Assembly: GCA_964500225.1 (NCBI GenBank)
Contig: CAZCOA010000004.1
Coordinates: 6,479-70,478 of the forward strand
Direction: 5' to 3'
DNA length: 64,000 nucleotides
From: an uncultured Anaerolineaceae bacterium
Lineage (GTDB): Bacteria; Planctomycetota; Phycisphaerae; FEN-1346; JAACEH01
The notes below the pieces were generated by a model, which did not search any database, was not told the DNA's origin, and was given only the letters and a program-made list of their open reading frames with translations. The first letter of the stretch is position 1, and each line of letters begins with the position of its first letter. The position numbers were made by a program, and so were the translations under genes. Positions 1,444 to 21,799 of the stretch are shown piece after piece.

Positions 1444-1510
1444 GCGAGGTCCGACGGTGGATAAGTTGACGTCAGGCGAATTGAAACGACTAGGCGACAG
1501 CCGCATACTC

Positions 1511-3526: not shown

Positions 3527-3566
3527 GACCGCAGACGTGCCGACATCGAACACGTTGCGGCAGGAG

Positions 3567-5166: not shown

Positions 5167-5224
5167 GGAAGCGGGCGCATGCGGCGCGACACGTGCCCAC
5201 GCGGCAACACGTCAAGGAGATCAC

Positions 5225-5593: not shown

Positions 5594-5780
5594 TGGTCAT
5601 TCGGACCCCCATCACATCCGCATAGGCCCGCAGAGTTGCTTCGGTCATTGCCTGTGAGGCGAAGTGCGACTCGCCACCGCTCGCGGCCGCGGCGGACAAC
5701 TCGGCAAGACACTTGCGACCACGGCCAACCCGTTCACCATTGCCTCCGGCGATTCCACATCGGCAGTCTTCATGCCCGAC

Positions 5781-7436
5781 TCAGCCTCCGCCGTCTCGCA
5801 GGATTCGCCGGAGGCTCAGAGCTCCGGTCGGGCAATGCTCGACGCATCGCCGGGCCGTACGACGAAGAGCCTCGCTCAGTTCCGAAGAGAACGGCGCCGC
5901 CGTGCGAACGCTGAAGCCGCGTCCGATGAACGTGAGGCCGAGCGTTTCGCGATCCTGTTCCGCAATACGCACGCAACGACCGCATTGGATACATTTGCCG
6001 GACTCGTACACGATGTCGGGATGTGTGGCGTCGCGCTCGAAGCGCCGGCGAGGACCATGGTACCGCGTCGGCGACGCGCCGTACCGGGCGGCCAGTTGAC
6101 GCAACGTACACGAATCGCGCTTGCCGCAGTCACAATCGAGGCAGCGTGCGGCCTCGGCACGGGCTTCCTGGTCGCCGCTCGTCCCGCCGGGCTTCGGATT
6201 TGCAGAATCACACATGCCGCGGGGACGCGGGTCGGCCTTCCCACGGAGCACTGCTATCTCGTCGGCGCTGAGACCATGCATGATGACATTGACATGCGAT
6301 GACTCACCAACAACCTGGGCGCCTCGCACGAACTGGTCAACGGCTATGGCTGCCCGGCGGCCACTCGCCACGGCATGAACACCGTAATTGGGACCGGTCA
6401 CGACATTTCCGGCGGCAAAAACGCCGGTACGGCCCGTGGCCAGCGTGGCGCGGTCCACCCGCACGCCTCGGCGGGATACCTGGAGGCCTAAGGTCCTCAA
6501 CAGCGAGAAATCGTACTGCACCTCACCGCCGGCCAGCCGTCCTTCGCCATAGATGGTCTTCTGGTCCATCGCGGTCTGCGTGCCGAGGGCTAGGATAACG
6601 GCCTGGTGCCGGACGAACAGTTCGTCGAGGCTGACGTCCCGTCCAAGACAGACGCCAGATTGCAAATCCACGCCGAGACGCAGAATTGCAGCGATTTCCG
6701 CGTCGATCACATCGTGGGGCAGTCGTTGTTCGTCGATGCCATAGCGGAAAAGCCCCCCGGCCTGCGTTTGTGCCTCGTACAACGTGCAGGCGTGCCCCAT
6801 CTGCCGCAGATAACATGCTGCGGAGAGGCCGGCGGGCCCAGCGCCGACTACGGCAACACTCTTGCCCGACTCGGCCGCACAGTCGGGTACATGCGGATCG
6901 CTGGAAGCGAGGTCCATGTCGGCCACCCAGCGGTGCAGATCGCGAATATTGACGGGCTGGTCCAGATCTTTGCGACGGCATGCTCGTTCGCAGAACCGCG
7001 GACACACGCGTCCTAGAGAGGCCGGCAGGGGGAGCCTCCGCCAGACAATGCTTGCTGCCCGCCGGGTGTCATCGGCCACAATCGCAGCGATAAAGTCGGC
7101 CACCTCCAGGTGGGCCGGGCATGCCAGCGAACATGGCGCCACGCAGTCGCCCGGGTGGTCGCTCAGGAGAAGCTCGATGGCCGTCCGGCGGGCTTGCAAC
7201 ACCACCTCGGATTGTGTCCGCACCACCATGCCCTCGGCCACAGGCATAGCGCACGACGGTTTTAGATCGGCCAGCCCATCGATCTCGACAACGCACATGA
7301 AGCAGGACGTGTGCGGCTCGAAACCGTCGAGATGACACAACGTTGGAATGTCGATCCCCAGACGGCGCGCGGCCTCCAGGATGGTGGTCCCCTGAGGCAC
7401 GTCGATGCTGCGATTATCGATGATCACTCTCGGCAC
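5781..7436 (-). CDS. 2Fe-2S ferredoxin (NuoG/HydA-N-terminal type) fused to GltD-like NAD(P)H:FAD oxidoreductase (StnC/NfnB-like subunit)
   Basis: N-terminus MPRVIIDNRSIDVPQGTTILEAARRLGIDIPTLCH...SCFMCVVE (plant-type 2Fe-2S). Then the GltD N-terminal Cys cluster (CVAPCSLACP...GRVCPRFCERAC). Then VAVVGAGPAGLSAACYL and GLFRYGI motifs. C-terminal extra Cys cluster (CLDCDCG...CIQCGRC). Last gene of the nuoE-nuoF-like operon. Confidence 0.8.
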   Translation of the reverse strand: MPRVIIDNRSIDVPQGTTILEAARRLGIDIPTLCHLDGFEPHTSCFMCVVEIDGLADLKPSCAMPVAEGMVVRTQSEVVLQARRTAIELLLSDHPGDCVAPCSLACPAHLEVADFIAAIVADDTRRAASIVWRRLPLPASLGRVCPRFCERACRRKDLDQPVNIRDLHRWVADMDLASSDPHVPDCAAESGKSVAVVGAGPAGLSAACYLRQMGHACTLYEAQTQAGGLFRYGIDEQRLPHDVIDAEIAAILRLGVDLQSGVCLGRDVSLDELFVRHQAVILALGTQTAMDQKTIYGEGRLAGGEVQYDFSLLRTLGLQVSRRGVRVDRATLATGRTGVFAAGNVVTGPNYGVHAVASGRRAAIAVDQFVRGAQVVGESSHVNVIMHGLSADEIAVLRGKADPRPRGMCDSANPKPGGTSGDQEARAEAARCLDCDCGKRDSCTLRQLAARYGASPTRYHGPRRRFERDATHPDIVYESGKCIQCGRCVRIAEQDRETLGLTFIGRGFSVRTAAPFSSELSEALRRTARRCVEHCPTGALSLRRILRDGGG

Positions 7437-7442
7437 TGGGGT

Positions 7443-9284
7443 TCACTCCACCTCGATGGCATCCGCCGGACAGCCGGCCCTACACATGCCGCAACGGATG
7501 CACTTCTCGGAATCGATGGTGTGTTGCTCGTACGGCGTCGGTTGAATGGCCTGGACCGGGCATCGCTGGGCACAGCGTGTGCAGCCGATGCATTTGTCCG
7601 TAATGCGGTAGGTGATAAGGGCCTTGCACTTGCGCGCCGGGCAACGGCCCCGGAGATGGGCCTCGTACTCGTCGCGGAAATAGCGCAGAGTCGTCAGCAC
7701 GGGGTTTGGCGCCGTCCGCCCCAAGCCACAGAGGCTGGTGTGTCGCACCTGGTCGCATAACATCTCTAGATCGTCGAGATCCTCGGGCCGCCCCTTGCCA
7801 TTGCATAGCCGTTCGAGGATGTCGAGCATGCGTCGCGTACCGACGCGGCAGAATGTGCACTTGCCGCACGACTCTTTCTCGGTGAACTCGAGGAAAAACC
7901 GTGCGATGTCCACCATACAGTCTGTGTCGTCGAGCACGACTAGGCCGCCGGAGCCCATGATAGCGCCCGTGCGGGTCAATGCCTCGTAGTCGATGGGCAG
8001 ATCGGCCATGGAGGCTGGAATGCAGCCGCCCGACGGCCCACCGATCTGGACCGCCTTGAAGCGGCGTCCCTCATGCACACCGCCGCCGATCGTCTCGACC
8101 ACCTCGCGAATGGTCATGCCCATGGGCACTTCGATGAGACCTCCGCGCCGGACGCGGCCGGCCAGGGCGAACACCTTGGTTCCTTTGCTGTGCTCCGTGC
8201 CAATGGAGGCGAAAGCGGCGGGACCATGGCGAAGGATCCACGGCACACAGGCGAATGTCTCGACGTTGTTGACAATCGTGGGCTTGCCCCACAAGCCGCT
8301 TTCGGCGGGATAGGGCGGACGGAATCGCGGCATGCCGCGGCGTCCCATAACGGAGGCTATCAGGGCCGTTTCCTCGCCGCACACAAACGCCCCGGCCCCT
8401 TCCATGACATGGAGCCGCAGTGAAAATCCCGTCCCCAAAACATCCTGCCCAAGATATCCGGTCCGCTCCGCTTGGGCGATGGCCTCGCGGAGCACGCGGA
8501 CGGCCAGCAGGTACTCGGCGCGGATGTAGATGTACCCTTCGGCGGCGCCGATGGCGTAGGCGGCAATGGCCATGCCTTCGATGACCCGCTGCGGGTCGCT
8601 TTCGAGAACGAGCCGATCCATGAAGGCTCCGGGGTCGCCTTCGTCGGCGTTGCAGACAACGTACCGTGTCGTGTCCGCCTGCCGTCGGGCTGCGGCCCAC
8701 TTCAGGCCGGTCGGATATCCTGCGCCACCCCGACCACGCAGCCCCGACTGCGTGACAACGTCGATCACCTGCTCGGGGGTCATATCCGTAAGGCACCGGC
8801 GCAGGGCCTCATATCCTCCACGTGCCAGGTACTCGGCGATGCACAGCGGATCGATCTGCCCGCAGTTCTCCAGAACGATGAACTTCTGTTTGCCTGTGGA
8901 CCCAGCTTCAGCGTCGGAATCGGAATGCGTCGCAAACGGCTTGATCGACGCCCACGCCTCGTCCGAAAGGAGCATGTCCGCCATGCGGCCGGCCCAGGCC
9001 ATGGCCCTACCGACCAGGCCCGTGGGCCTTGCGCAGTCGCGTACGATGCGTCGCGCCGCGGCCGGCCTGACACCTCCGAACACTTTGCGGCTTCCATCCG
9101 TCGAAACCACCTCGACAATAGGCTCTTGATGGCACAGGCCGCTGCACCCGACGGCTTTAACCGGAACATGGAGACCATGACGAAGGGCGGCATCGCGGAC
9201 GGCCTCATGCACGGACCGTCCGCCGCTGGCAATGCCGCAGGTGGCCAGGCCGACGCGAATCTCCTTGACGTTGTGATCGCTCAT
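7443..9284 (-). CDS. NuoF/HoxF/HydB-like NADH-binding FMN [4Fe-4S] subunit with C-terminal 2x[4Fe-4S] ferredoxin domain
   Basis: 613 aa. GLRGRGGAGYPTGLKW, VVCNADEGDPGAFMDR, ESCGKCTFCRVG and CIGCTRCAQRCP/CIRCGMCRAGCP motifs. These are classic 51-kDa subunit signatures. Confidence 0.9.
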   Translation of the reverse strand: MSDHNVKEIRVGLATCGIASGGRSVHEAVRDAALRHGLHVPVKAVGCSGLCHQEPIVEVVSTDGSRKVFGGVRPAAARRIVRDCARPTGLVGRAMAWAGRMADMLLSDEAWASIKPFATHSDSDAEAGSTGKQKFIVLENCGQIDPLCIAEYLARGGYEALRRCLTDMTPEQVIDVVTQSGLRGRGGAGYPTGLKWAAARRQADTTRYVVCNADEGDPGAFMDRLVLESDPQRVIEGMAIAAYAIGAAEGYIYIRAEYLLAVRVLREAIAQAERTGYLGQDVLGTGFSLRLHVMEGAGAFVCGEETALIASVMGRRGMPRFRPPYPAESGLWGKPTIVNNVETFACVPWILRHGPAAFASIGTEHSKGTKVFALAGRVRRGGLIEVPMGMTIREVVETIGGGVHEGRRFKAVQIGGPSGGCIPASMADLPIDYEALTRTGAIMGSGGLVVLDDTDCMVDIARFFLEFTEKESCGKCTFCRVGTRRMLDILERLCNGKGRPEDLDDLEMLCDQVRHTSLCGLGRTAPNPVLTTLRYFRDEYEAHLRGRCPARKCKALITYRITDKCIGCTRCAQRCPVQAIQPTPYEQHTIDSEKCIRCGMCRAGCPADAIEVE

Positions 9285-9790
9285 CGGCCCGACTCCTTGC
9301 GCACCTTGTCGATGATGATGGTGGCCTTGTGGGGCGTGAGTCTGCCGTAGGTCACATCGTCAATAGTCATACACGGCGCCAGGGAACAGCAGCCAAGGCA
9401 CGGAACCTTCTCGATGGTAAAGAGGCGTTCGGCGTCCGTGTCTTCGTGGTCGTCGTCGATGCCCAGGTGGCGGCGGATTGCCTCGGTAATCAGCGGCGCC
9501 CCGGCCACGTGGCAAGCGGTGCCGTGGCAGACGCGAACCCTATGTCGGCCGACGGGCTTGTGGCGGAACTGGCTGTAGAACGTCGAGACGCCGGCGATCT
9601 GAGCCGCCGTAATCTCCGTCGTGCGGCAGATATGCTCCAGGGCCTCTCTGGGCAAATAGTGGAAGTGCGCCTGAATCGCCTGGAGAATGGGAATCGCCGC
9701 ATCGGCGGTCGTTCCCGTCCGGCGCACGATATCGTCCACTACCGCCAGGTCGATCGGCTCGTCCACAGGTTGTCGCTTCGCCTTGGTCAT
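9281..9790 (-). CDS. NuoE/HoxE-like 2Fe-2S thioredoxin-fold subunit
   Basis: 169 aa. CHGTACHVAG ... CLGCCSLAPCM, the 24-kDa subunit Cys pattern. ATGA overlap with the downstream nuoF-like gene. Confidence 0.85.
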   Translation of the reverse strand: MTKAKRQPVDEPIDLAVVDDIVRRTGTTADAAIPILQAIQAHFHYLPREALEHICRTTEITAAQIAGVSTFYSQFRHKPVGRHRVRVCHGTACHVAGAPLITEAIRRHLGIDDDHEDTDAERLFTIEKVPCLGCCSLAPCMTIDDVTYGRLTPHKATIIIDKVRKESGR

Positions 9791-9802
9791 GCCAGCGTCT
9801 CG

Positions 9803-12010
9803 TCACTTGCCAATGCAGAACAGCTTCTTCTCTCCCCGAATGAGAATCCGGCCCTCGACAAACGCCGGTGAAGCAGATGTCTTCTCTCCCACCTTGCACG
9901 TGTCTTTGAGCGAAAAGCGGTCACCGAAGTCGAAGAGGAACATGTCGCCCTGGCGGCTGGGCAGGTACACGGTATTCCCAACCAGCGAAGGTGACGGGGT
10001 CATGGACGTCTGAAAATCGTGCTGCCAGAGAATCCGTCCGTCAACGGCCCCATAGCACACCACCGCACCGTAGCTGTGGACGTGAAGATAGTAACGCTCG
10101 TTGGCCAGCGGGCTGACGATATTGGGCAGATCGGTATCGTCCCTCCAGAGAACATGCGTCGCGGTCACGTCGCCACTCCCCCCTGCCCTGACGGCTGTCG
10201 CATGGCTGTACTCGTTGGCGACAAAGACGATGCCCCCTGCAACCACCGGACTCGGACCGACCTCGCCGTCGATGGCCGCAGCTCGCCAGAGTTCGGCCCC
10301 GGTGGCCGGCGCATAGGCGATGACGAGCGGCGCGGCAGCGGTGATCAACTCGTCTCGATCGCCGATCCGGGCGATAACGGGCGTGCTCCAGGCCGAGCGC
10401 ACCGGCCGCACGGTCTCCCAGATCACGCGCCCCGTAGAGGTATCCATGGCCAAAATGGACGACTTCTCCTCGCTCGGTTCGAGGCCCTGGTCAAGCTGGA
10501 GAATGACCATGTTCTTATACGGCACCAGGGACGACGCCAACCCATAGGGAGTGTCGGGCTCGCCGAGATTGATGGACCACTTTTGTTTTCCGTCGTGCCC
10601 GATGCCGGCAACGTCGGCGTTGGCAAAGGTCACATAGACGCCTCGGGCATCCACGGCCGGCGTTGGAGCGGCCAGGCCTGTGTCGGGAAACGCTTCCACC
10701 TTCTTGCCGGCCATGGGACTGTTGGGCGGAGACTTGACCTGTGTTCTCCATAGCACGCTGCCGTCGCGAAGACCAAAACAGTAAAGCCAGTTCCGGTCGG
10801 CGTCGGCGCTGGTCAGATAGACGTGATCGCCCCAGACCACAGGGGAACTGTTGCCGTCGGCGGGGAAGCCCTTCTCGGGGTCTCCGATGGGAACCGCCCA
10901 CAGAATGCCCTTGCCGGTCGTCGCATTCCATTCGGTGGGCCAGTCGCCTTCAGGAACAAGGCCGCAGCCCGTGGGTCCGCGGAATCGCGGCCACGTGAGC
11001 GTAACGGCGGAGGCGTCCTCCCCGGCGCCGTCGGCTCCCCCGGCATCGCTCGCCAGCCGCACCGTCGGGACGACAAGTGCCACGGCCACCGCTGCCGCGG
11101 CAAGCACGCCGGCGCCACAGGTGACGGCGTGCGAGTTTCTCTTGGCGACGACCTCCCAGTCCGGCTCTTCGGCGCCAGCGTCCAGCGGGGGACCGGGCGG
11201 TCTGTGGCCAAGCCACGCATACCCATGGAAACAGAGGACCGCAATTACCGCCCCCGCCAGGAGCATCCAACGCCCGACGGCCATCTGTCGGCTGCGAGCA
11301 AAAAAGTCTCGTCGAAGGGCGGCATCCTCGTTGCGAATGGCCTCCTTAACAAGCTCGTCATCGGGCGACTCGACAAGCTGCCGGTGAAGCTCGGCCATAC
11401 GGGGCGGATTCTGCCAGAGAAGATCATAAGCCGACGTGTAGTTGCGCAACATCGTCACCACAATGATTGCCGAGAACGCGGCGGCAAGAACCCCCAGGGA
11501 CATGAGCATGGAGCGTACCAGCGTCGCGGAAGGGCGCTGACGCATATTGATTGCCCATCGCCACAGACCGGATGTCGCGCGAGTCCACCAGGTCGCCCCT
11601 TCTGTCCACCTGACGTGTTCGCGCGGACACGACGCGAAACACCTTCCGCAACTGACGCATAAGCCCGATTCGATCTGGAATTCCTTGTGCATTGGTACCC
11701 GAGACATGGCCGCGGCCTTCAGCGTCGCCACCAGACCACACCCGAATCCCAGCAAAGCACACCCGATCCGGAACCGACGAACAATGCTCGCGGCCTCCCT
11801 TCGCAACAGTTCCTCGTCGCCGCCCTGCATGCGAAAGGCGCGAACCTCGAACGTGTCGGCGGCCTCAGGCGTTGCGGACCCCGGACCGAGCACCAGTTCG
11901 GCAAGGGCCACCGTGCGATGGCTGCGCGCCGGTACGTGGCCGACCATCCACCCCGCGGCGGCCAGCACCAGCGGCAGCACGGCCAGGAGAATTCGCAAGG
12001 CGGTCTTCAC
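9803..12010 (-). CDS. Membrane protein with predicted cytoplasmic-loop 4Fe-4S motif (CVSCGRCFASCP), about 5 TM helices, and a C-terminal periplasmic PQQ-like beta-propeller. Probable GTG start at 12010; the ORF-track ATG at 12121 would overlap napH-like by 108 nt
   Basis: Single ORF with no internal stop. N-terminal TM helix (TALRILLAVLPLVLAAAGW), further hydrophobic segments, and the CxxCxxCxxxCP motif between TM2 and TM3. The C-terminal about 400 aa contain PQQ/BamB-like repeats (WPRFRGPTGCGLVPEGDWPTEW..., ILWQHDF...). Confidence 0.6.
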   Translation of the reverse strand: MKTALRILLAVLPLVLAAAGWMVGHVPARSHRTVALAELVLGPGSATPEAADTFEVRAFRMQGGDEELLRREAASIVRRFRIGCALLGFGCGLVATLKAAAMSRVPMHKEFQIESGLCVSCGRCFASCPREHVRWTEGATWWTRATSGLWRWAINMRQRPSATLVRSMLMSLGVLAAAFSAIIVVTMLRNYTSAYDLLWQNPPRMAELHRQLVESPDDELVKEAIRNEDAALRRDFFARSRQMAVGRWMLLAGAVIAVLCFHGYAWLGHRPPGPPLDAGAEEPDWEVVAKRNSHAVTCGAGVLAAAAVAVALVVPTVRLASDAGGADGAGEDASAVTLTWPRFRGPTGCGLVPEGDWPTEWNATTGKGILWAVPIGDPEKGFPADGNSSPVVWGDHVYLTSADADRNWLYCFGLRDGSVLWRTQVKSPPNSPMAGKKVEAFPDTGLAAPTPAVDARGVYVTFANADVAGIGHDGKQKWSINLGEPDTPYGLASSLVPYKNMVILQLDQGLEPSEEKSSILAMDTSTGRVIWETVRPVRSAWSTPVIARIGDRDELITAAAPLVIAYAPATGAELWRAAAIDGEVGPSPVVAGGIVFVANEYSHATAVRAGGSGDVTATHVLWRDDTDLPNIVSPLANERYYLHVHSYGAVVCYGAVDGRILWQHDFQTSMTPSPSLVGNTVYLPSRQGDMFLFDFGDRFSLKDTCKVGEKTSASPAFVEGRILIRGEKKLFCIGK

Positions 12011-12012
12011 GA

Positions 12013-12870
12013 TCAGACGTCCTCCTCGGCCGTAGCCGGACGGATCGCGCCGAACGGACACGTGTCCTCGCAGAGGCGGCAATTCATGCACTCGTCGGGA
12101 GTGATGGCCACATGTTTCCACGCCACGCGGCTACACAGGCCGAGCAGAGCCCCGTACGGACACAGGAACCGGCAATAGGGACGCCCGACAAACATGGAGA
12201 GGATCAACAGGACGCCGCCAGAAATCATCACGGGCAGATTGCCGTCGAGCCGGAACAAACCGACGAAGGGGTCCCAACGGCACACGATAAAGACGCTGTC
12301 GGTGGCAGCCATGAGTATGGCCGCGCCGAGATAAACGAATGGGACAAGCCCCAGCATCGACTGGAGCCAGAGGGGCACGCGCACTGGGCGTATGAGAACC
12401 AGATCCTGGATGGCGCCGAGCGGGCAGACGCCGCCGCAAAATACCCGGCCAAAAAGCAGAGCAAAGACAATGGGTAGCACAAAGATGAGCACCACGGAAA
12501 CCGGCAGCACGTAATCGGCATCGGCCAGCGCGAGCGTTACGTTCTGAATCGAGCCGATCGGGCACACACAGCCGCCGAGGTAGAAGCCGAAGTAGACCAG
12601 CGACGCCACGGCCAGCCAGCGTATCGCCGCACGGCTTCTCAGACGCAGAGAGAACCAAGCGCTGAGGGCGAGCCCGGCTGCCAGCGCGCCCACGTGGACC
12701 ATATCCATCCATGGCGGCAATCGCAGCGGCCGCTGGTCAAGCTCAGGCAACTGGTGCCCCGAATAGAAGTCCGGTGGCGGAAACCGCTCAACGGCCCGCA
12801 CATCGGCAGCACACACAGCCGCCGCGACCAGCGTCAGGGCCACCCAAAGAAGTCGTCGGCGAGTGTTCAT
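12013..12870 (-). CDS. NapH/MauN-family membrane-bound [4Fe-4S] protein (quinol dehydrogenase-type polyferredoxin)
   Basis: 285 aa from internal ATG (MNTRRRLLWVALT...). Four hydrophobic helices. GGVCPLG/CPYGALLGLC and CMNCRLCEDTCP motifs. ATGA overlap with the upstream napG-like gene. Confidence 0.75.
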   Translation of the reverse strand: MNTRRRLLWVALTLVAAAVCAADVRAVERFPPPDFYSGHQLPELDQRPLRLPPWMDMVHVGALAAGLALSAWFSLRLRSRAAIRWLAVASLVYFGFYLGGCVCPIGSIQNVTLALADADYVLPVSVVLIFVLPIVFALLFGRVFCGGVCPLGAIQDLVLIRPVRVPLWLQSMLGLVPFVYLGAAILMAATDSVFIVCRWDPFVGLFRLDGNLPVMISGGVLLILSMFVGRPYCRFLCPYGALLGLCSRVAWKHVAITPDECMNCRLCEDTCPFGAIRPATAEEDV

Positions 12871-13454
12871 CCGCCCTCCTTCTGTCGTCCGAGGTGCTTG
12901 ACGACGTACGGACGATCGGTTGGTACGCGCATGAAGGCATCGGAGGGACACTGAGCCGCGATGGCGCACTGGTTGCAGTTGAGACAGCGGTCCTGACGCA
13001 CCTGGAGATAGAGCGATCCGTTGCCGTAGTCGGTGCAGCCTTTGGCGCAGATGCCGCAACCGGTGCACAGCGACTCGTCGATATGGTATTCGTAATACGG
13101 ATCCTCGACGAAGCGACGTATGATCGCGCCTGCCGGACACAGTTGGTTCTCAGCCCCGGTCTCCAGCTTGTTGGGCTCTGGATGGAAAAAGCCGGTGCAC
13201 AAGTCGCAGTAGCCGCACATCGCAAAATCGTGTACGCACTTGACCGCGGAGTTTTCGAGGACACATGCCGTGCGGCAGTTTCCACACTGGATACACTTGA
13301 AGGGATCGATCTGCCACACATAGCCCTTGGTGCGTGCCCTACCGCCGGCGGCAAGACCGACGCCGGCAATCCCGATGCCGAGCAGTCCGCGAGCAATACC
13401 GCCGAGGAACCCGCGGCGCGTCAGAGCCTGATTAGTCGTGCGTTCGTCGCTCAT
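12867..13454 (-). CDS. NapG/MauM-like periplasmic ferredoxin with twin-arginine signal, 4x[4Fe-4S]
   Basis: Tat motif TRRGFLGG. Four Cys clusters (CIQCGNCRTAC, CGYCDLC, CTGCGICAKGC, CLNCNQCAIAAQCP). Confidence 0.75.
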   Translation of the reverse strand: MSDERTTNQALTRRGFLGGIARGLLGIGIAGVGLAAGGRARTKGYVWQIDPFKCIQCGNCRTACVLENSAVKCVHDFAMCGYCDLCTGFFHPEPNKLETGAENQLCPAGAIIRRFVEDPYYEYHIDESLCTGCGICAKGCTDYGNGSLYLQVRQDRCLNCNQCAIAAQCPSDAFMRVPTDRPYVVKHLGRQKEGG

Positions 13455-13798
13455 CGCGTGGTCGTCCTGTCATTGGCGACGGCACTGTGGGCGCGCCGCC
13501 CCTGCTCGCACAGGGCATCCTTCGGCTCAGCCTCTGCATGCCGCGATATGCGGACCGCCGTCACCAGACCGAGGCCCCTGCTCCGCTGCTGCTCTGCCTC
13601 GGGCAAGCGGCACGACTCGAAGGCCCGGCAACGAGCACACGGCGCAGTCGTTAGTCCACCACCCAATTGCCGCCGCCGGGAGGGCGCGACCAGCCGCACC
13701 GCCGCAGCTCCGACCAGGGCCAGCCCCGACCAACGGACCGCACTGGCCAACACGTCTCGCCTCGTCAGCCTCCGACAAATGCCGTGGGAATCCGTCAT
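13451..13798 (-). CDS. Small Tat-signal Cys-containing hypothetical protein
   Basis: 115 aa. RRLTRRDVLASAV Tat-like motif. CARCRAFESC cluster. ATGA-type overlaps with both neighbours suggest it is a genuine co-translated ORF, but composition is low-complexity. Confidence 0.4.
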   Translation of the reverse strand: MTDSHGICRRLTRRDVLASAVRWSGLALVGAAAVRLVAPSRRRQLGGGLTTAPCARCRAFESCRLPEAEQQRSRGLGLVTAVRISRHAEAEPKDALCEQGRRAHSAVANDRTTTR

Positions 13799-14763
13799 CT
13801 TTCTTCCTCATCACGTTCGAACACAAGCACCTCGTTCTGCGCCGGATCGACGACGAATATTCGCCCGCTTGCGTCCACAGCCAGGTCCATGCCGGCGCTG
13901 GCAGGGGTAAAGAACTCCGTGCCGATGATCCCCAGAACCCGTCCTTGGCGGTCGCTGACCTTGACACGGGGCGACCGGCCCTTTTCCGCGGTGACAACGC
14001 AGCAGTCAGCCGTCAGCGCAAGATTCGTCGGGTTGCAGCATCCGGGGAATCGGTTCGGCGCCATCCCCTGCCCGCCCCAGTATTCAAGACGCACGCCGCC
14101 GCGGCTGAATCGCTCGACGCGCCAGTAACCCGGATTCGTGATCATCACGTCACCGCCCGGTTCCACTGCCACATCCATGTACGGACTGGGGCAGAGAATT
14201 TGCGGCCGTCCCGTCGTCTCGTCGCGACCGGCCACACTGTCCACCAGGTCGCCGCTCACGTCGAAATGGTGCAAGGCTCGATTCCCCGCGTCTGCAAGCC
14301 ACACATCCACGCCATGCACAGCGATGCCCGTGACACATCCCAACTCTCCATGCCCGTCTCCGGGACGGCCCCAGGAGCATGTGAGCGTCCCGTCGGAATC
14401 GAAAACGTGGACGCACGTTTTCTCGGTCGCAAAGACGCGTCCCTCGGCCCCCACGGCCACCGCCGTGACCGGGCCCGGCGTCGGCATGTGACGGATCTGC
14501 ACCCACGCGGCGTCATACACCGTCACGCCGCCGGCCGAGGCCAGGTAGATGCGGCCATCATCGCCAAGGGCAATGCCCCTGAGGCCCTCGACGGCCGGCG
14601 TCTGCTTCAGAACCAGGCGGTATGTCCTCGGCATGGCCGTCGCCGCAGACTCGTCCCCCCTGCCGTGACCGACCGACGATGGGGCGTCCTTGTCAGCACA
14701 GCCGCACAGGCACATGGCGACAAAAACCTGGATGATCGTCCGTCCGTTCGTCATGGCTATCAC
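13795..14763 (-). CDS. NHL-repeat beta-propeller lipoprotein
   Basis: 322 aa. N-terminal signal with Cys (VFVAMCLCGCAD). Repeated motifs (GIALGDDGRIYLA, GIAVHGVDVWLAD, PMDVAVEPGGDVMITN, GMDLAVDASGRIFVVD) typical of NHL repeats. Confidence 0.65.
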   Translation of the reverse strand: MIAMTNGRTIIQVFVAMCLCGCADKDAPSSVGHGRGDESAATAMPRTYRLVLKQTPAVEGLRGIALGDDGRIYLASAGGVTVYDAAWVQIRHMPTPGPVTAVAVGAEGRVFATEKTCVHVFDSDGTLTCSWGRPGDGHGELGCVTGIAVHGVDVWLADAGNRALHHFDVSGDLVDSVAGRDETTGRPQILCPSPYMDVAVEPGGDVMITNPGYWRVERFSRGGVRLEYWGGQGMAPNRFPGCCNPTNLALTADCCVVTAEKGRSPRVKVSDRQGRVLGIIGTEFFTPASAGMDLAVDASGRIFVVDPAQNEVLVFERDEEER

Positions 14764-14785
14764 AGGCCCCTGCCTGCCCCAAACG

Positions 14786-16198
14786 TCATGGAGCCACTCG
14801 CACGCATACCATCTCCGTCAAATCGCGGCAATAGATGCAGCCGTCGGCATACGCGATGGGACCCCAGGCGTCGTGTCCATTGAGAATCTTCGCGCGGCCG
14901 AGCTCCTTGTAACCTTCTGTGGTGGCTTCCACCATGACAAGTTCGCCGCTCTGTCCGCCGACGACGAACAACACTCCGTCGATGAGAATAAACGGGCCGA
15001 GCTCGAATTGTACCTTCGGACCGCTCGACCAGACCAACTCGCCGGCCAGGTCCAAACATGCCAGTTGTCCGCTCTCGGTCACGCCGTATAGGTGGTCCTT
15101 ATAAAGCACGGGCGTTTGTTGCTCGCAACTGAACACTTGCGGCTTAATGCGAAACACCTGTCCCACGTTGAAGCGGTCGCCCTCGGTCCAGACACGGACC
15201 ATCTGGGAGCCGACGCCGTAGCTGCCCGTGAAGAACAGACGGTCGGGTGCGACCACCACAGGCGACGGGCTGTTGGCAATTTTGATGACCCACTCAGGCC
15301 ATTTCCACAGGACGCGACCGTCGCCGGCAGCCACCGACACCACGCCGCCGCCCGAGCAATAGACGTATTGACGCACGCCGCCGAAATCGCAGACCATCAC
15401 CGACGACTCGGTCATTGTCCAATGGTCCGGGTTGGGGGTTCGCCAAACGATCCTGCCGGTGGCCAGCTCAACGGCCATCAGCAGCGGCCCATCTTTGGAC
15501 GGATCGCCGCCGGGAGCGATGATGGCGAGGTTCCCGTCAATGAGCGGACACTGCCCTGTGTACCATCGCGGCACCGTGGTTCCAAACTCCTTCACCAAGT
15601 CGAAGCCCCACACCTTCTCGCCCGTGTCGGTCCGCAGGCACGTGACGTGACACTTGGGCCCCATGGCCACGAGGTACTCGTCCGTGACGGCCGCCACAGT
15701 GCGAGACATGCCGTGGTTGCGTTTGACGGTGACGGAGTAGGAATACCGCCAGATCTCCTGGCCGTCGGCCGCCGAGAGGCAACGGATGGCGTCCTCGCGT
15801 TTGTCGCGGTCGTAGTCCACGACGAAGACCCGGCCCTTGTGAACGGCGGCGCCGGCATGGCCCTCGCCGACGGCAATGCGCCACAGCACCGGCGGCCCGC
15901 TCTCGGGCCACGAGCGCGCCACCACAGCCCCCTGCGGCACAATGCCATTGCGGTCCGGACCGCGAAACTGCGGCCACGAGCCATCCAGAGGCGCAGGCCG
16001 CCCGGTGCCACGAACAAGCGTTCCGGGATTAGCCGGAGGCGGCTCGGTCTCGCCGTCCGGCTTGGGCCGCTCGTCCAGCCCGGGCAGGCGCACGGACACC
16101 GTGACGTTCCGCGGCATCTGATACCAGTGCGCGAGCACCGCCCCGGCAGCAACGGCCGCGACCACAGGTGTCAGAATTACCAATACGCGGACCTTCAC
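14786..16198 (-). CDS. PQQ-like beta-propeller repeat protein with signal anchor (GTG start chosen at V25 of the track ORF)
   Basis: Hydrophobic N-terminus (VLVILTPVVAAVAAGAVLA). Repeated W-containing propeller blades (WPQFRGPDRNG, VLWRIAVGEG, EIWRYSY, KVWGFDL, RIVWRTP, RVLWKWP, ELVWSSGP). Confidence 0.65.
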   Translation of the reverse strand: MKVRVLVILTPVVAAVAAGAVLAHWYQMPRNVTVSVRLPGLDERPKPDGETEPPPANPGTLVRGTGRPAPLDGSWPQFRGPDRNGIVPQGAVVARSWPESGPPVLWRIAVGEGHAGAAVHKGRVFVVDYDRDKREDAIRCLSAADGQEIWRYSYSVTVKRNHGMSRTVAAVTDEYLVAMGPKCHVTCLRTDTGEKVWGFDLVKEFGTTVPRWYTGQCPLIDGNLAIIAPGGDPSKDGPLLMAVELATGRIVWRTPNPDHWTMTESSVMVCDFGGVRQYVYCSGGGVVSVAAGDGRVLWKWPEWVIKIANSPSPVVVAPDRLFFTGSYGVGSQMVRVWTEGDRFNVGQVFRIKPQVFSCEQQTPVLYKDHLYGVTESGQLACLDLAGELVWSSGPKVQFELGPFILIDGVLFVVGGQSGELVMVEATTEGYKELGRAKILNGHDAWGPIAYADGCIYCRDLTEMVCVRVAP

Positions 16199-16331
16199 GC
16201 CGGCACTCCCCGTCTGCACGAGTTGAACGGATGAATTATAGACTATGGAGCACCGCGCGGATAGGCGCAAACGCCTCGCCGGAGCGTCTTCGCCGACCGC
16301 CGGCCCTCACAGAGTAAACGCGATGGAGTAG

Positions 16332-17591
16332 TCAGGGTTTCGCAGCGAAACAGACCAGTACGCCCCCGCGGTTGCCGATAACCAGCCGTCCGTAGGCGAC
16401 CGCCGGCGAGGCGGAAATGGGTTCGCCGCCCACGTATCGCCACAGAAGCTTGCCCGTTTCCAGGGCCACCGCATATAGGTTCCCGTCGTCGCTCCCGACG
16501 AACACCCGGTCGCCGACGATCACCGGGGACGAATCGATTCTGTCCCTGGCCCTGAACTGCCACAGTTCCTCACCATTGTCGAGGTCCAGGCACCTGAGCC
16601 GCATGTCCTGCCCGCCGACCACCACGCGGTTGCCCTTGACGGCAGGCGAGCTATGAAAGACGACCGTCTGGTTGCCAACGTCGAACACCCACCGCGTCGC
16701 GTCCGTGTCGAGGTCCACGCACAGGACCGTGCCCATGTAGGTCGGCACCACCAGGCGCGCGCCGACCCGTGCCGGCGTGGCCAGGGCGATCTGGCCGGTG
16801 GCAATCTCAAGAGCCGGCCCGCCCACCTCGGCGTCCAGCGTATAGATGGTGCCGCTGCCGCAACTAAGCACAGTGACATCGCGACCCGATACCACGGGAC
16901 AGCCAAAGACCTCCGTGCCGACCTCGTAGTCCCAGAGTTTTTTGCCGTCCTCGATGGCGAGACAATAGACGTGATGGTCGAACGATCCGAAGATCACCCT
17001 GTCGCCAGCCACGGCGGCGGGCGACTGAATCGGCTGCTCGGCCTGGAACGACCACAGAACATCTCCCGTGACGGCATCGAACGCGCGAAAATCGCCCTCG
17101 TAGCTGCCCAGCAGCACACGATTGCCGACAACAAGGGGCGATGACGTGATCGTACCAGCCTCGCGGCGGTGCCAGAGGATCTCGCCGCTATCCAGCGAGA
17201 GGGCGTAAAGGCCGGCCCACTCGGTGCCGACATAGACTCGGCCGTCCACCACGGCGGCCGTCGAAGAGATCGGGCCTTCAAGATCCTTGCGCCACGCCAC
17301 GTGCAGCGTCCGCGGGAGCGACGACTCGGCAACGCCCGTACAGGCCGCATCGCCCCGAAAACACGGCCAGGCTCCCACTGCGGGAACCGATTCGGGCCCC
17401 ACATATGGATGTAGCACAGGCTCGGGATCGGACGATACGTCGTCGGACGTCGGCGAGATTCCCCGGTGGCCAAGAAGGATGGCCAACACAATGAGCATGA
17501 CACATACCGGACCGACGTACCAATGGGCGCGCATGGGACATGCGCGACCGCAGGAAGGTGGATGAGGCTCGGGAACCGTGGGATTGTCCAA
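16332..17591 (-). CDS. PQQ-like beta-propeller repeat protein with N-terminal membrane anchor
   Basis: 419 aa. VCVMLIVLAILLG anchor. Blades with ILWHRRE, DVLWSFQAE, KLWDYEV, TRWVFDV, ELWQFRA, KLLWRYVGG. Confidence 0.65.
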   Translation of the reverse strand: MDNPTVPEPHPPSCGRACPMRAHWYVGPVCVMLIVLAILLGHRGISPTSDDVSSDPEPVLHPYVGPESVPAVGAWPCFRGDAACTGVAESSLPRTLHVAWRKDLEGPISSTAAVVDGRVYVGTEWAGLYALSLDSGEILWHRREAGTITSSPLVVGNRVLLGSYEGDFRAFDAVTGDVLWSFQAEQPIQSPAAVAGDRVIFGSFDHHVYCLAIEDGKKLWDYEVGTEVFGCPVVSGRDVTVLSCGSGTIYTLDAEVGGPALEIATGQIALATPARVGARLVVPTYMGTVLCVDLDTDATRWVFDVGNQTVVFHSSPAVKGNRVVVGGQDMRLRCLDLDNGEELWQFRARDRIDSSPVIVGDRVFVGSDDGNLYAVALETGKLLWRYVGGEPISASPAVAYGRLVIGNRGGVLVCFAAKP

Positions 17592-17601
17592 GGCCGCCTC
17601 C

Positions 17602-21051: not shown

Positions 21052-21052
21052 G

Positions 21053-21754: not shown

Positions 21755-21799
21755 GGTCCTCGTGACCCCGAAACCCCTCGGAACGTGCCGCCGACGCTG

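Follow-up and report, generated by a model that had tools for sequence, protein, structure and literature searches.

Within the window, by which we mean the whole 64-kb stretch of DNA that was analysed, nine co-directional genes (G1–G9) occupy positions 5781–16198 on the minus strand. The first-pass annotation had described them as a tightly coupled operon. This reading is borne out, as neighbouring genes share 4-nt ATGA overlaps or are separated by short gaps and no internal signal above chance was found within G1–G9, although the gaps reach 31 nt rather than the 22 nt given at first. Together with U1–U7, they form an array of 16 genes that runs head to tail from 27284 to 5781. The first gene of this co-directional array is U7, and 12 nt upstream of its start codon lies a promoter-like site on the minus strand (TTGACC-16 nt-TACAAT, 27296–27323). 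As a consensus match only, it agrees at 10 of 12 positions and is the best of four matches in 21500–29000, while no promoter-like site was found between 5400 and 22000.

Profile searches against Pfam and NCBIfam confirmed the initial domain assignments. No heme-binding motif, molybdoenzyme or FMN_bind domain is present in any cluster protein or in the rest of the window. CxxCH, the motif of c-type cytochromes, does not occur in any cluster protein, and the cluster contains no molybdopterin-binding part. NapA and NapC are also absent, in line with the original remark that no known terminal reductase is encoded here, and neither a hydrogenase nor a formate dehydrogenase is present.

The cytoplasmic NADH module

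G7 (9281–9790, minus strand) encodes a NuoE/HydC/NfnC-like [2Fe-2S] subunit (Pfam 2Fe-2S_thioredx, E 6e-45), and G8 (7443–9284, minus strand) encodes a NuoF/HydB/NfnB-like FMN- and NADH-binding subunit (Complex1_51K, E 2e-49; NADH_4Fe-4S, E 2e-35; two Fer4 matches). In most other genomes the NuoE-like and NuoF-like genes are fused, yielding products of 780–812 aa with a family median of 806 aa. G8 is composed of an N-terminal Cys-rich domain, an FMN/NADH part and a C-terminal 2x[4Fe-4S] domain, and conservation among 57 homologues is 90% or more for its nucleotide and FMN motifs and for each of the eight C-terminal Cys. Its best solved relatives are the Nfn/Stn B subunits (9bov_B, 4e-230; 9n5u_B, 6e-227; 8oh5_B, 6e-220), behind which the HydB hydrogenase subunits rank (E 1e-189 to 6e-198). 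Judged by its sequence, G8 is the core subunit of a Bfu-type enzyme.

G9 (5781–7436, minus strand) encodes a shortened NfnA/StnA-like iron-sulfur flavoprotein subunit with the domains Fer2_4, Fer4_20, NAD_binding_8 and Fer4_Nqo3. It carries an N-terminal [2Fe-2S] site, a His/Cys cluster motif and a GltD-type 2x[4Fe-4S] domain, followed by an FAD Rossmann part and a C-terminal 2x[4Fe-4S] domain. The N-terminal part matches HydA (E 5e-37), and the best solved relatives are the A subunits of NfnABC/StnABC (E 1e-96 to 1e-109), which agrees with the HydABC/StnABC-type subunit logic proposed at the outset. However, G9 has 551 aa, compared with 955–1178 aa for the solved NfnA/StnA proteins, and it aligns with 9bov_A in two blocks (3–289 with 5–290, and 316–540 with 443–671), so that about 150 residues of NfnA have no counterpart. 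The NADPH-binding subdomain (~150 residues) is missing from G9 and from all 33 family members examined, and in all 33 a short linker of 16–56 aa replaces it. Therefore, the earlier label of a GltD-like NAD(P)H module is right about the GltD-type 2x[4Fe-4S] and FAD parts and wrong about NADPH binding. Without this subdomain, the NuoF-like G8 would hold the sole nucleotide site. G9 also lacks the molybdopterin-like C-terminal domain, and the two losses together make NADPH:NAD+/ferredoxin transhydrogenation by G7–G9 unlikely.

The trio is closest to the bifurcating enzymes NfnABC/StnABC, the type 1 Bfu-family transhydrogenases (9n5u, 9bov, 8oh5). It has the same NuoE-like, NuoF-like and 2Fe-2S/GltD-type logic, and the FMN/NADH site, the B-subunit ferredoxin-port clusters and the A-subunit Fe-S chain are conserved in G8 and G9. 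In Nfn/Stn-type enzymes, ferredoxin receives its electrons from the C-terminal B-subunit clusters, and the third reaction takes place on the A subunit (PMC12018979). Whereas Nfn/Stn genes stand alone, G7–G9 are co-operonic with genes for membrane and periplasmic proteins. The [FeFe] hydrogenase HydABC likewise uses the same BfuBC core to couple NADH and ferredoxin to a third reaction on the A subunit, but G9 has no H-cluster domain, and the third reaction proposed here would be electron export via a membrane protein.

Iron-sulfur proteins of the membrane and periplasm

G5 (12013–12870, minus strand) encodes a NapH-like integral membrane iron-sulfur protein with a signal peptide, five helices, two cytoplasmic CX3CP motifs and one cytoplasmic CxxCxxCxxxCP motif (Pfam Fer4_5 twice, E 3e-15, plus Fer4). 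It is 28% identical to E. coli NapH over residues 122–272 (150 residues), a region in which the two CX3CP motifs and the first cluster motif correspond; its C-x-C-P and C-R-W-D-P-F motifs find no counterpart. The periplasm-side residues C101, C103, C197 and D200 are specific to the G5 family, and E. coli NapH lacks these Cys/Asp residues. The best NCBIfam match is the C-terminal part of NosR (E 2e-12), and no solved structure matching G5 was found.

G6 (9803–12010, minus strand) encodes a fusion of a five-helix segment with a periplasmic PQQ_2 propeller. The N-terminal segment bears a second cytoplasmic CxxCxxCxxxCP motif (C117–C127, with Fer4-type matches at residues 108–144). In some genomes it is a separate 141-aa gene, in most it is fused with G5 into forms of 426–450 aa (family median 428 aa), and fusions of about 1000 aa uniting G5 and G6 also exist. 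A ferredoxin domain thus appears to be split between the two proteins, with one [4Fe-4S] motif on G5 and the second at the N-terminus of G6. Hydropathy and the positive-inside rule suggest that both motifs are cytoplasmic and that the propeller lies outside.

The next protein, G4 (12867–13454, minus strand), is a Tat-exported polyferredoxin, NapG/MauM-like in design, whose twin-arginine motif, TRRGFLGG, precedes a hydrophobic stretch. Across 81 sequences, 17 Cys show conservation of at least 90%: sixteen fall into four groups (C54/57/60/64, C73/80/83/86, C130/133/136/140 and C157/160/163/169), which are predicted to hold four [4Fe-4S] clusters, and the seventeenth is C106. The median identity of G4 across phyla is 54%. 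G3 (13451–13798, minus strand) overlaps both neighbours by ATGA and encodes a small single-pass Cys-cluster protein with a twin-arginine-like N-terminus (RRLTRRDVL), one transmembrane helix, a C-x2-C-x5-C motif and a later Cys; it has no Pfam or NCBIfam match. Using a crude motif filter (R-x-x-F-[LI]-K, a helix and four Cys within ~20 residues), we found that at least 48 of 75 loci, spread over several phyla, have a G3-like ORF flanked by the G2 and G4 homologues, and in Draconibacterium a 54-aa gene is called at this position.

As in NapGH, NosGH and MauMN, the gene of a Tat-exported four-cluster ferredoxin lies directly upstream of that of a polytopic CX3CP/[4Fe-4S] protein, and as in the mau cluster, the pair comes after the genes of a propeller and a small Cys-rich exported protein. 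The initial NapG/NapH-type assignment is therefore apt for the design of G4 and G5 but not for family membership: both score far under the NCBIfam cut-offs (NapH, 42 against 213; NapG, 17 bits against 269), and G5 has one C-terminal cluster motif, the other being on G6. Catalytic genes of the Nap, Nos or Mau pathways, whose presence nearby would have pointed to an accessory role, are absent (NapA/B/C, NosZ, methylamine dehydrogenase subunits), as are cytochromes, and a cytoplasmic NADH module is encoded alongside the pair instead.

NapH-like proteins are regarded as modular conduits to periplasmic enzymes (PMC8238504). In this regard, the cluster resembles NosR/PceC and the flavinylated "NapH-like systems" (Meheust et al. 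2021, PMC8238504), where such a link connects electron pools with periplasmic enzymes, some of them beta-propeller enzymes (NosZ, NirS, ExaA). It differs in having neither an FMN_bind domain nor ApbE, and so would escape the definition used in that survey, and in explicitly encoding the donor, as a Bfu module. The Rnf complex also connects the ferredoxin and NADH pools of the cytoplasm to Fe-S subunits in the membrane and redox centres facing the periplasm, but homology is limited to generic ferredoxin domains (RnfB/RnfC matches under cut-off), the RnfA/D/E/G subunits are absent and there is no flavin on the outside.

The likeness to NapH raises the alternative that G5 and G6 react with menaquinone, as has been supposed for NapH, and that G7–G9 are the NADH-dehydrogenase head of an alternative NADH:quinone oxidoreductase, a small respiratory complex. 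G4 and the propellers would then branch off from it or, as in NapGH, act as a periplasmic reductase that depends on quinol. The array encodes a polyprenyl diphosphate synthase, a type of enzyme that also makes quinone side chains, and some loci have no NADH module, so that G1–G6 can draw on a different donor, potentially quinol. Among named proteins, G5 is nearest to NapH, whose annotation is that of a quinol dehydrogenase subunit (NCBIfam NF007013; PMC8238504) and with which the membrane core of G5 aligns. Nevertheless, we consider this alternative decidedly unlikely, since no recognisable quinone-binding site was found and a Bfu core with a ferredoxin port is usual in soluble enzymes of low potential rather than in quinone reductases (PMC12018979). 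The cluster also occurs in lineages (Omnitrophota, for example) whose respiratory chains have been described as incomplete, which is weak evidence in the same direction.

Periplasmic propellers and the conserved neighbourhood

G1 (14786–16198, minus strand; 470 aa) is a membrane-anchored periplasmic PQQ_2/BamB-like beta-propeller (PQQ_2, E 3e-22) with one N-terminal hydrophobic anchor, and U1 (16332–17591, minus strand) is a third such propeller (PQQ_2, E 7e-53) with one N-terminal helix. With the propeller of G6 (PQQ_2, E 9e-24), all three are anchored in the inner membrane. G2 (13795–14754, minus strand) is a six-bladed NHL beta-propeller and probable lipoprotein, with an LCGC lipobox and an invariant vicinal Cys-Cys within G-C-C-N-P. 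Among the periplasmic proteins, the only recognisable redox cofactor sites are G4, G3 and this Cys-Cys. A 22-sequence, multi-phylum alignment of G1 revealed invariant polar residues (E112, D128, Y129, N161, H162, R166, Q216, C217, N256, S266, Y280, Y327 and D459) and near-invariant ones (H264, Q360 and T362). We regard G1 as a candidate catalytic subunit, and its conserved polar residues and the Cys-Cys of G2 as the best candidates for a reactive site; most of the conserved residues of G6 lie in repeat motifs that look structural. The G1 family profile matches BamB, quinoprotein alcohol dehydrogenases and tetrathionate hydrolase no more than weakly, while the G6 propeller profile matches BamB (E 1e-23).

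PQQ_2 propellers are related to quinoprotein dehydrogenases, which would suit a reverse flow, from a periplasmic substrate oxidised at the propellers or the NHL protein via G4 and G5 to NAD+, possibly also ferredoxin, through the Bfu module. Bfu enzymes are reversible (PMC12018979), and NapH-like modules accompany periplasmic oxidases such as ExaA as well as reductases (PMC8238504). We find this direction very unlikely, however: none of the PQQ-enzyme models is matched above its family threshold (for the PQQ alcohol dehydrogenase model, G1 has a score of 22.6 and the cut-off is 480), and NAD+ reduction would need a very low-potential periplasmic donor, with no hydrogenase or formate dehydrogenase at hand. 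The acceptor might also be polysulfide, thiosulfate or tetrathionate, reduced by persulfide chemistry at a cofactor-less propeller and the G2 Cys-Cys, with the Bfu module supplying the low potential needed, for example, for thiosulfate, whose cleavage has a midpoint potential near −400 mV. In favour are the match of the G6 and G1 profiles to the cofactor-less periplasmic tetrathionate hydrolase (E 1e-15 and 1e-3), the invariance of the vicinal Cys pair and the habitats of the carriers, which are anaerobes of sediments, digesters and groundwater according to database record titles. However, BamB is matched at least as well as tetrathionate hydrolase, generic propeller repeats account for the match to the latter, and conserved sulfur-transfer genes are absent from the cluster. 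This acceptor is wholly speculative and, in our estimation, most improbable.

A neighbourhood not conserved in related genomes would have spoken against the initial reading, but conservation is strong. Gene order is kept in 52–77 of the 58–78 loci that reach far enough to inform, from Planctomycetota, Bacteroidota, Verrucomicrobiota, Omnitrophota, Muiribacteriota and Armatimonadia, and the cultured Draconibacterium orientale has the same order. The cluster is common to hundreds of anaerobic bacterial species in at least six phyla: relatives of G5 occur in at least 586 GTDB species genomes, and its family comprises 355 clusters (50% identity) at E<=1e-30 among 1.84 billion representatives. G1 is present in 63 of 63 loci, G4 in 77 of 78 and G6 in 68 of 69. 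In 5 of 60 loci (L025, L060, L063, L065 and L069), G1–G6 stand without NuoEF/G9 genes nearby, which makes the NADH module a common rather than an obligatory part. As first proposed, this does not seem to be a described system: we found no published description in the literature, and the cluster appears undescribed.

The conserved unit is larger than the nine genes originally delimited. It adds the third propeller and a MacB-type ABC transporter; in most cases a GT4 glycosyltransferase belongs to it as well, and frequently a terpene-cyclase/terpenoid module. The U1 homologue lies inside the cluster in 61 fetched loci, following the G9 homologue in Bacteroidota. U2 (17602–21051, minus strand), conserved in the cluster across phyla, is a duplicated FtsX-type (MacB/ADOP-like) ABC permease with large periplasmic domains (FtsX twice, ADOP model match), and its Draconibacterium homologue has MacB_PCD. 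Its start at 21051 is 1 nt past the stop of its partner U3 (21053–21754, minus strand), an ABC ATPase (ABC_tran, E 4e-36) with homologues inside the cluster in 42 fetched loci.

Further upstream lie the terpenoid genes. U4 (21800–22777, minus strand) encodes an alpha/alpha-toroid "prenyltransferase/terpene-cyclase repeat" protein (Prenyltrans, E 9e-17) and adjoins the cluster in Planctomycetota (L001, L003, L006, L007, L010, L011, L013) and in L053. U5 (22808–24550, minus strand), whose start at 24550 overlaps the U6 stop (ATGA), fuses a DUF116 domain (E 2e-32) to a trans-polyprenyl diphosphate synthase (polyprenyl_synt, E 6e-40) with DDxxD-type motifs. U6 (24547–26415, minus strand) is a divergent class II terpene cyclase of the squalene-hopene cyclase family (SQHop_cyclase_C, E 4e-37; SQHop_cyclase_N, E 2e-19; TIGR01787, 142 bits against a cut-off of 323) with a D-A-D-D-T-A catalytic-type motif and several QW-type repeats. 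U7 (26412–27284, minus strand), joined to U6 by an ATGA overlap, has a 2x[4Fe-4S] ferredoxin domain (Fer4 dicluster matches) and an N-terminal domain without assigned function, with homologues within or beside the cluster in L073, L053 and L016.

These genes suggest that the 16-gene array might synthesise an isoprenoid lipid of the envelope, attach a sugar to it, export it and modify it by reduction. U5 would make a polyprenyl diphosphate, which U6 would cyclise with the help of U4 and U7; GT4 would add a sugar, and the MacB-type transporter would move the product to the outer side of the membrane. There, the propellers and the NHL protein would handle it while the NADH/NapH-like/ferredoxin chain powers its periplasmic reduction. 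The co-directional genes with overlaps or short gaps, the promoter-like site only upstream of U7, the DxDDTA-type motif and QW repeats of U6 and the anchoring of three propellers beside the lipid phase are consistent with this. So are the conserved linkage of the GT4 and transporter genes to the core in different phyla, an all-against-all clustering of locus ORFs that gave no further conserved families, and U6 homologues (38–49% identity) beside or inside the cluster in Bacteroidales (L065, L075, L039, L056) and in L053; in L065 the homologue abuts the core, stop and start adjacent. However, terpenoid genes lie within 10 kb of the core in only about 15 of 87 fetched loci, with limited flanks, GT4 is lost in this window though present in an 89%-identical relative, and the substrate is entirely hypothetical. 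We are also not aware of any case in which ferredoxin drives the reduction of a lipid in the periplasm, and we consider such a role unlikely.

Proposed electron export

Starting from the observed gene order, domain content, conserved cofactor ligands, fusions and cross-phylum conservation, we put at about even the chance that G1–G9 are the core of a heme-free, quinone-independent transmembrane complex that exports electrons from NADH, perhaps together with ferredoxin, to the periplasm. In the assembly that we infer, G7, G8 and G9 would form a Bfu-type (NfnABC/HydABC-like) iron-sulfur flavoprotein. NADH would be oxidised at the FMN of G8, whose C-terminal di-cluster domain, the ferredoxin port in solved relatives, is kept. 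G9, with its FAD and Fe-S clusters, would be the wire to a third partner, as HydA links the same core to the H-cluster; having lost the NADPH-binding subdomain, it would act as a wire rather than a second nucleotide site. The third partner would be the split cytoplasmic 2x[4Fe-4S] domain formed by the C-terminus of G5 and the N-terminus of G6. From there, electrons would pass to the inner-face CX3CP cluster site of G5 and across the membrane to G4, possibly by way of the small Cys protein G3. The substrate that G4 would then reduce would sit on the anchored propellers and the NHL lipoprotein. Delivery of electrons to the propellers, as first proposed, is likewise inferred.

The fusions of NuoE with NuoF, of the NapH-like protein with the ferredoxin segment and of this segment with a propeller count for electron export. 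Export leaves unexplained the constant MacB-type ABC transporter and GT4 and the frequent terpenoid module, and the G9 flavin could have a different partner, for instance a quinone or a soluble substrate. Joint use of NADH and reduced ferredoxin (confurcation), if it occurs, would make the complex an electron sink for fermenting anaerobes.

Layout and conservation of the operon

The nine operon genes, numbered G1 to G9 from 5' to 3', lie on the minus strand from 16198 down to 5781, exactly where the first-pass annotation had placed them, in a window of about 64% GC. Their tight coupling also stood: the junctions from G1 to G9 measure +31, -4, -4, -4, +2, +12, -4 and +6 nt, and the first becomes +22 nt if the NHL lipoprotein gene G2 starts at GTG. 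AGGAGG-like ribosome-binding sites precede the NapH-like gene G5 and the ferredoxin/propeller gene G6. A consensus scan of 5400-22000 revealed no promoter-like site, and the terminator-like hairpins in this interval (13, against 11.3 ± 4.3 expected from shuffles) all fall within coding sequence. Therefore, the sequence shows no internal promoter or terminator between the NuoEF/GltD-like genes and the napGH-like and propeller genes, in keeping with the single operon first proposed.

Proteins identical or 89% identical to those of the operon occur in metagenome bins of Phycisphaerae (Planctomycetota). G5 yielded 7508 scored matches at E<=1e-5, the best 120 of which were all below 1e-95, and 355 relatives at E<=1e-30 were found among 1.84 billion representatives clustered at 50% identity. 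With one genome per GTDB species, the G5 alignment placed a relative in at least 586 genomes; the best 80 of these belong to Planctomycetota (Brocadiia, Phycisphaerae, Pirellulales and Planctomycetia), many Bacteroidota families, Verrucomicrobiota, Omnitrophota, Muiribacteriota, Armatimonadia and one bin labelled Bacillota. The window proteins were compared by tblastn with all fetched loci, and among the loci long enough to tell, homologues numbered 63/63 for G1, 73/74 for G2, 77/78 for G4, 68/69 for G6, 55/60 for G8 and 52/58 for G9. The gene order G1-G2-(G3)-G4-G5-G6-G7/8-G9 was kept in all cases, and median identities were 30-54%. The arrangement was confirmed by separate gene calls, for which Pfam matches had been precomputed, in Planctomycetota, in the unassigned metagenome contig L005 and on the chromosome of the cultured Draconibacterium orientale, and related proteins are named from isolates of Maribellus, Mariniphaga and Tangfeifania. 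Gene order and counts across phyla thus decisively showed that the neighbourhood is conserved in related genomes, contrary to the refuting condition first set. Chance juxtaposition and separate operons were ruled out by this cross-phylum order together with gene fusions.

Five loci keep G1-G6 with no NuoEF/G9 genes nearby, so what is invariant is the core of periplasmic and membrane proteins, for which the NADH module is the usual, not obligatory, donor. These loci also speak for a different reading, in which the complex is an NADH:quinone oxidoreductase and the NapGH-like proteins a side branch; we regard it as unlikely.

The conserved unit exceeds nine genes. Further conserved members are the propeller gene U1 (16332-17591), the duplicated FtsX/MacB-type permease U2 and the ABC ATPase U3; loci usually add a GT4 glycosyltransferase and another one to three PQQ_2 propellers. 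The clusters comprise 13-17 genes. In Bacteroidota the extras flank the core on either side (one to three additional propellers, G1...G9, U1, GT4, ABC, FtsX); in Planctomycetota the ABC genes and U1 stand ahead of the core and the GT4 gene after it. All-against-all ORF clustering of 85 loci gave no other conserved family, the remaining ones being antisense shadows of real genes. The GT4 gene is absent from the window and present at 17098-18384 in the 89%-identical locus L001. It follows the G9 homologue in most relatives; here, 187 nt (5594-5780) separate G9 from a convergent cupin gene. Members of this GT4 family share an N-terminal G-x-Y-C-x-x-C-x-R-D motif, and a third Cys is conserved too, a pattern not usual in GT4 enzymes.

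Cytoplasmic flavoprotein module and membrane unit

The cytoplasmic genes encode a core of the Bfu type, the NfnABC/StnABC/HydABC family of bifurcating iron-sulfur flavoproteins. G7 contains the full NuoE-type 2Fe-2S domain of a BfuC subunit (PF01257, E 6e-45), and G8 has the BfuB layout of Complex1_51K and NADH_4Fe-4S domains with two C-terminal Fer4 domains. The best three solved relatives of G8 are NfnABC/StnABC B subunits, matched over the full length (E 4e-230, 6e-227 and 6e-220), with HydB hydrogenase subunits ranking behind them, and all B-subunit ligands, ligand Cys included, are conserved in the G8 family. G9 contains Fer2_4, the start of the NuoG His-cluster motif, Fer4_20, an FAD Rossmann domain and Fer4_Nqo3, that is, the [2Fe-2S]/[4Fe-4S] chain with an inserted GltD/NfnL-type FAD domain that marks an A subunit; its GxGxxG motif and cluster Cys are conserved. 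Its best three solved relatives are the matching A subunits 9bov_A, 9n5u_A and 8oh5_C (E 3e-109, 7e-105 and 4e-96). The HydABC/StnABC logic read from the genes at first was therefore correct, with G8 and G9 closest to the B and A subunits of NfnABC/StnABC.

G9 aligned with NfnA (9bov_A) in two blocks, 3-289 to 5-290 and 316-540 to 443-671. NfnA residues ~291-442 (~150) have no counterpart in G9, which has a 26-residue linker instead; from the known order of GltD-type domains, we take the missing part to be the NADPH-binding Rossmann subdomain. A short linker of 16-56 residues was found in 33 of the 33 family members examined. The large C-terminal domain is also absent from G9 (551 aa vs 955-1178 aa). 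Of the GltD-like NAD(P)H module originally described, the GltD-type FAD domain thus remains and the complete module does not, its NADPH subdomain being missing throughout these members. Since G9 lacks this subdomain, NuoF would hold the single predicted pyridine-nucleotide site. A true NfnABC transhydrogenase was ruled out for the same missing subdomain. By analogy with HydA in HydABC, G9 looks like a wire of FAD and clusters leading to a third partner.

In the cryo-EM structure of T. sibiricus NfnABC, the FAD of NfnA is reduced by NADPH and the NfnA clusters lead to the FMN/B1/C1 site of NfnBC, where NAD+ is reduced, with ferredoxin reduced through the C-terminal NfnB clusters B3/B4; the Bfu enzymes known so far are soluble (PMC12018979). 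In PDB 9mqx, a solved complex that may serve for structural comparison, the NuoF-like chain matches G8 (E 3e-166), the short NuoG-like chain matches G9 (E 5e-19), and a 152-aa 'Fe-S-cluster-containing hydrogenase subunit' is the best solved match of the Tat polyferredoxin G4 (E 2e-6).

G5 has two Fer4_5 domains and one Fer4 domain. In its alignment with E. coli NapH, residues 122-272 share 28% identity and take in both CX3CP motifs and one CxxCxxCxxxCP motif; like NapH, it is polytopic with two CX3CP motifs, and C145-x3-C149-P and C233-x3-C237-P, aligned with those of E. coli NapH, are invariant. G5 carries one C-terminal [4Fe-4S] motif (C261-C271), and the second lies behind a helical hairpin at residues 117-127 of G6, whereas NapH has both in one chain. 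The five-helix N-terminal part of G6 holds this one Fer4 motif and is followed by a PQQ_2 propeller. The second-motif segment is a separate 141-aa gene in some genomes and fused to the NapH-like protein in most (426-450 aa, family median 428 aa), and fusions of ~1000 aa that also include the propeller exist. On the strength of these fusions, G5 and G6 are predicted to work as one membrane unit, in which the cytoplasmic di-cluster domain is split and the propeller is periplasmic. Ten of the clustered representatives (P0324, P0340, P0352, P0366, P0376, P0386, P0404, P0405, P0419 and P0425) are ~970-1140 aa long and match G5 over ~10-280, a length that fits one polypeptide of NapH-like protein, ferredoxin/helix segment and propeller.

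From hydropathy and the positive-inside rule, we infer that G5 has a cleavable signal, a short periplasmic segment with an invariant R-F-P-P-P-D-F motif and five helices, with both CX3CP motifs and the C-terminal cluster motif facing the cytoplasm. On the predicted periplasmic face, the G5 family has invariant residues (G-C101-x-C103-P and C197-R-x-D200-P-F) that are absent from E. coli NapH and could hold or contact an outer redox centre. NosR has a periplasmic FMN-binding N-terminus flavinylated by ApbE, which G5 lacks: its periplasmic N-terminal segment has only ~30 residues, it gave no FMN_bind match, and no ApbE is encoded in the cluster. A flavinylated NapH-like system was excluded for lack of FMN_bind and ApbE.

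The polyferredoxin G4 shows several Fer4 matches behind a TRRGFLGG twin-arginine motif, the combination of Tat signal and four cluster motifs found in NapG. Its 16 conserved Cys form four groups of four, so four [4Fe-4S] clusters would be expected, as in NapG and MauM. The small Cys protein G3 matched no Pfam or NCBIfam family and is conserved by design rather than by sequence, with an R-(R/x)-x-F-(L/I)-(K/R) N-terminus, one helix and four Cys within ~20 residues; a crude motif filter found such an ORF in at least 48 of 75 loci. The Tat-type signal of a Cys protein of this size hints at a cofactor loaded in the cytoplasm. Profile searches thus upheld the NuoE and NuoF domain assignments and did not uphold membership of the NapG and NapH families proper. 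G5 scored 42.4 bits against a cut-off of 213 (TIGR02163) and 40.3 against 234 (NF007013), and was far below the NosR and MauN thresholds too; G4 scored 17.4 bits against 269 (NF007012), and its pairwise comparison with E. coli NapG gave short motif matches only.

No CxxCH heme motif occurs in any cluster protein, and among the other window ORFs of at least 100 aa it appears once, by chance, in UvrA. A cytochrome-based conduit was ruled out by its absence from the cluster. Genes for NapA/NapB/NapC, molybdopterin, cytochrome c, NosZ and MADH were likewise not found in the 64-kb window or the conserved neighbourhood, which agrees with the initial remark that NapA, NapC and any known terminal reductase are missing. 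An accessory set for Nap, Nos, Mau or organohalide enzymes was rejected, the same two areas holding no catalytic genes for it.

Periplasmic propellers and neighbouring genes

Hydropathy indicates that N-terminal helices anchor G1, U1 and the G6 propeller in the inner membrane. G1 consists of a PQQ_2 propeller with one such helix. In 22 sequences from several phyla, it has invariant polar residues (E112, D128, Y129, N161, H162, R166, Q216, C217, N256, S266, Y280, Y327 and D459) and near-invariant H264, Q360 and T362. They occupy positions of the structural S-P motif in ordinary BamB-like propellers and look like a putative binding or active site. The conserved residues of G6 are mostly at repeat-motif positions. 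The probable lipoprotein G2 has a six-bladed NHL fold with an invariant G-C-C-N-P motif (C239 and C240) just ahead of the first strand of blade 5; by standard propeller geometry, this Cys pair would lie on the face beside the central channel, the usual ligand side.

The propellers are not members of the PQQ-dependent dehydrogenases (TIGR03075, 22.6 bits for G1 and 25.3 for G6 vs a cut-off of 480), and their family profiles matched BamB at least as well. Profile matches in the PDB were BamB, designer propellers, quinoprotein dehydrogenases and tetrathionate hydrolase, all of modest significance. Assigning a function in this way failed, the matches being BamB-like or generic PQQ_2 and a weak one to tetrathionate hydrolase, with no cofactor assignable. 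Tetrathionate hydrolase is a periplasmic enzyme without a cofactor. The idea that the assembly is a sulfur-compound reductase, beside which this weak match may be set, seems to us the least probable of those we considered.

At the head of the co-directional array lies a terpenoid module (21800-27284, minus strand), made up of the alpha/alpha-toroid protein U4, a fusion of DUF116 with a polyprenyl diphosphate synthase (U5), a divergent class II terpene cyclase with a D-A-D-D-T-A motif and QW repeats (U6) and a di-cluster ferredoxin-domain protein (U7). ATGA overlaps connect U7/U6 and U6/U5, and the sole good promoter-like site, a consensus match only, is TTGACC-16-TACAAT, 12 nt 5' of U7. Other Planctomycetota and several Bacteroidales loci (L053, L065, L073, L075, L039 and L056) likewise have homologues of U5-U7 directly beside the core, a link that is recurrent but not universal within 10-kb flanks. 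In Bacteroidales and other lineages, the module next to the core lies, for instance, at L065:3543-5342, L075:130-3275 and L053:656-6515. No squalene synthase was seen in the array, so the cyclase may use a regular polyprenyl chain; a cyclic polyprenoid product in anaerobes is a speculation. A literature search for DUF116 matched only unrelated DUF116x families.

Another account of the cluster is that a cyclic polyprenoid glycolipid is made in the cytoplasm, exported and reductively tailored outside. Because the ABC transporter, the GT4 enzyme and the terpenoid genes would then be explained too, we consider this the strongest rival, at a rather low probability; the incomplete recurrence of the terpenoid genes counts against it.

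Some Bacteroidales loci (L075:3474-5275 and five others) place a LytTR-type response regulator and a 346-aa protein with no NCBIfam match between the cyclase and the first propeller gene, which could be a dedicated regulator pair of the cluster. Radical SAM genes occur at the cluster edge in some loci, a SPASM/twitch type directly after the U7-like gene (L073:19020-20198) and a B12-binding one nearby (L005:1-1006), with no conservation across loci.

A methylene-tetrahydrofolate reductase set of the acetogen type runs towards the operon on the plus strand (1442-5593). It consists of a fusion of a GltD-like flavoprotein with an MvhD/FlpD domain (1442-3526), a MetV-like DUF5981 protein (3438-4265), MTHFR (4258-5166) and the small cupin (5225-5593); the arrangement is kept in L001 and not in distant loci. 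The genes directly upstream of the array (28976-36716, minus strand) are of an ordinary kind for phosphate uptake: two BPD_transp_1 permeases, a binding protein (PBP_like_2), a porin (Porin_5), and a histidine kinase and response regulator resembling PhoR/PhoB. Two further proteins are unusual and exported-looking: a 906-aa protein with Big_5 and dockerin type I domains (40429-43149, minus strand) and a 797-aa DUF4159 protein with a short N-terminal terpene-cyclase-repeat match (49133-51526, plus strand).

Proposed electron route and its significance

Each part has a known family, whether the Bfu core, the NapH-like conduit, the NapG-like ferredoxin or the NHL and PQQ_2 propellers, and the assembly may be classed among the NapH-type systems for extracytoplasmic electron transfer, here with a Bfu module as the driving part. 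Nap, Nos, Mau, Pce, Rnf and the flavinylated NapH-like systems in the survey of Meheust et al. (PMC8238504) differ in their catalytic subunits, cytochromes and FMN-binding domains, which are absent here. Source annotations are generic, such as '4Fe-4S binding protein' and 'NHL repeat-containing protein'. The view that the architecture is undescribed has held so far: we did not find this gene combination in the full-text literature, where most subscription journals are not covered and an earlier description is possible.

Building on the observed gene order, cofactor motifs, fusions and conservation, we infer the protein contacts, the direction of flow and the acceptor as follows. NADH would be oxidised at G7/G8, possibly jointly with reduced ferredoxin as in confurcating HydABC. 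Electrons would exit via G9 to the split di-cluster domain of G5/G6, go past the CX3CP site, and then cross the membrane to G3/G4, from which the propeller/NHL assembly would apply them to a substrate. The same chain could run in reverse, from a periplasmic donor to NAD+, which we hold to be quite improbable. Our preferred reading, put forward tentatively, is the outward one. A bolder form of it, which we hold to be less likely than not, would be a previously unrecognised and widespread complex of anaerobic diderms, in which a confurcating Bfu core would dispose of NADH and reduced ferredoxin by exporting low-potential electrons, free of heme and quinone, through a NapH-like Fe-S conduit to a new class of propeller/NHL catalyst. 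These catalysts may act on a glycosylated cyclic polyprenoid that the cell makes itself or on a sulfur compound, and the chance that the periplasmic chemistry is new is considerable.

NapH-, NosR- and MauN-type proteins all carry cytoplasmic Fe-S clusters, and we know of no case in which the electron partner of these clusters has been identified. With an NADH-oxidising Bfu module encoded beside a NapH-like protein, a link backed by fusions, the question of the donor becomes testable, and cultured carriers such as Draconibacterium, Maribellus and Mariniphaga make experiments feasible. If the bolder reading is true, a NapH/NosR-type protein would for the first time have an explicit electron donor in the cytoplasm. 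The finding would extend the Bfu family from soluble enzymes to a membrane and periplasmic output. The cluster may be a common, overlooked electron sink or envelope-modifying system in anaerobes of sediment, groundwater and digesters.
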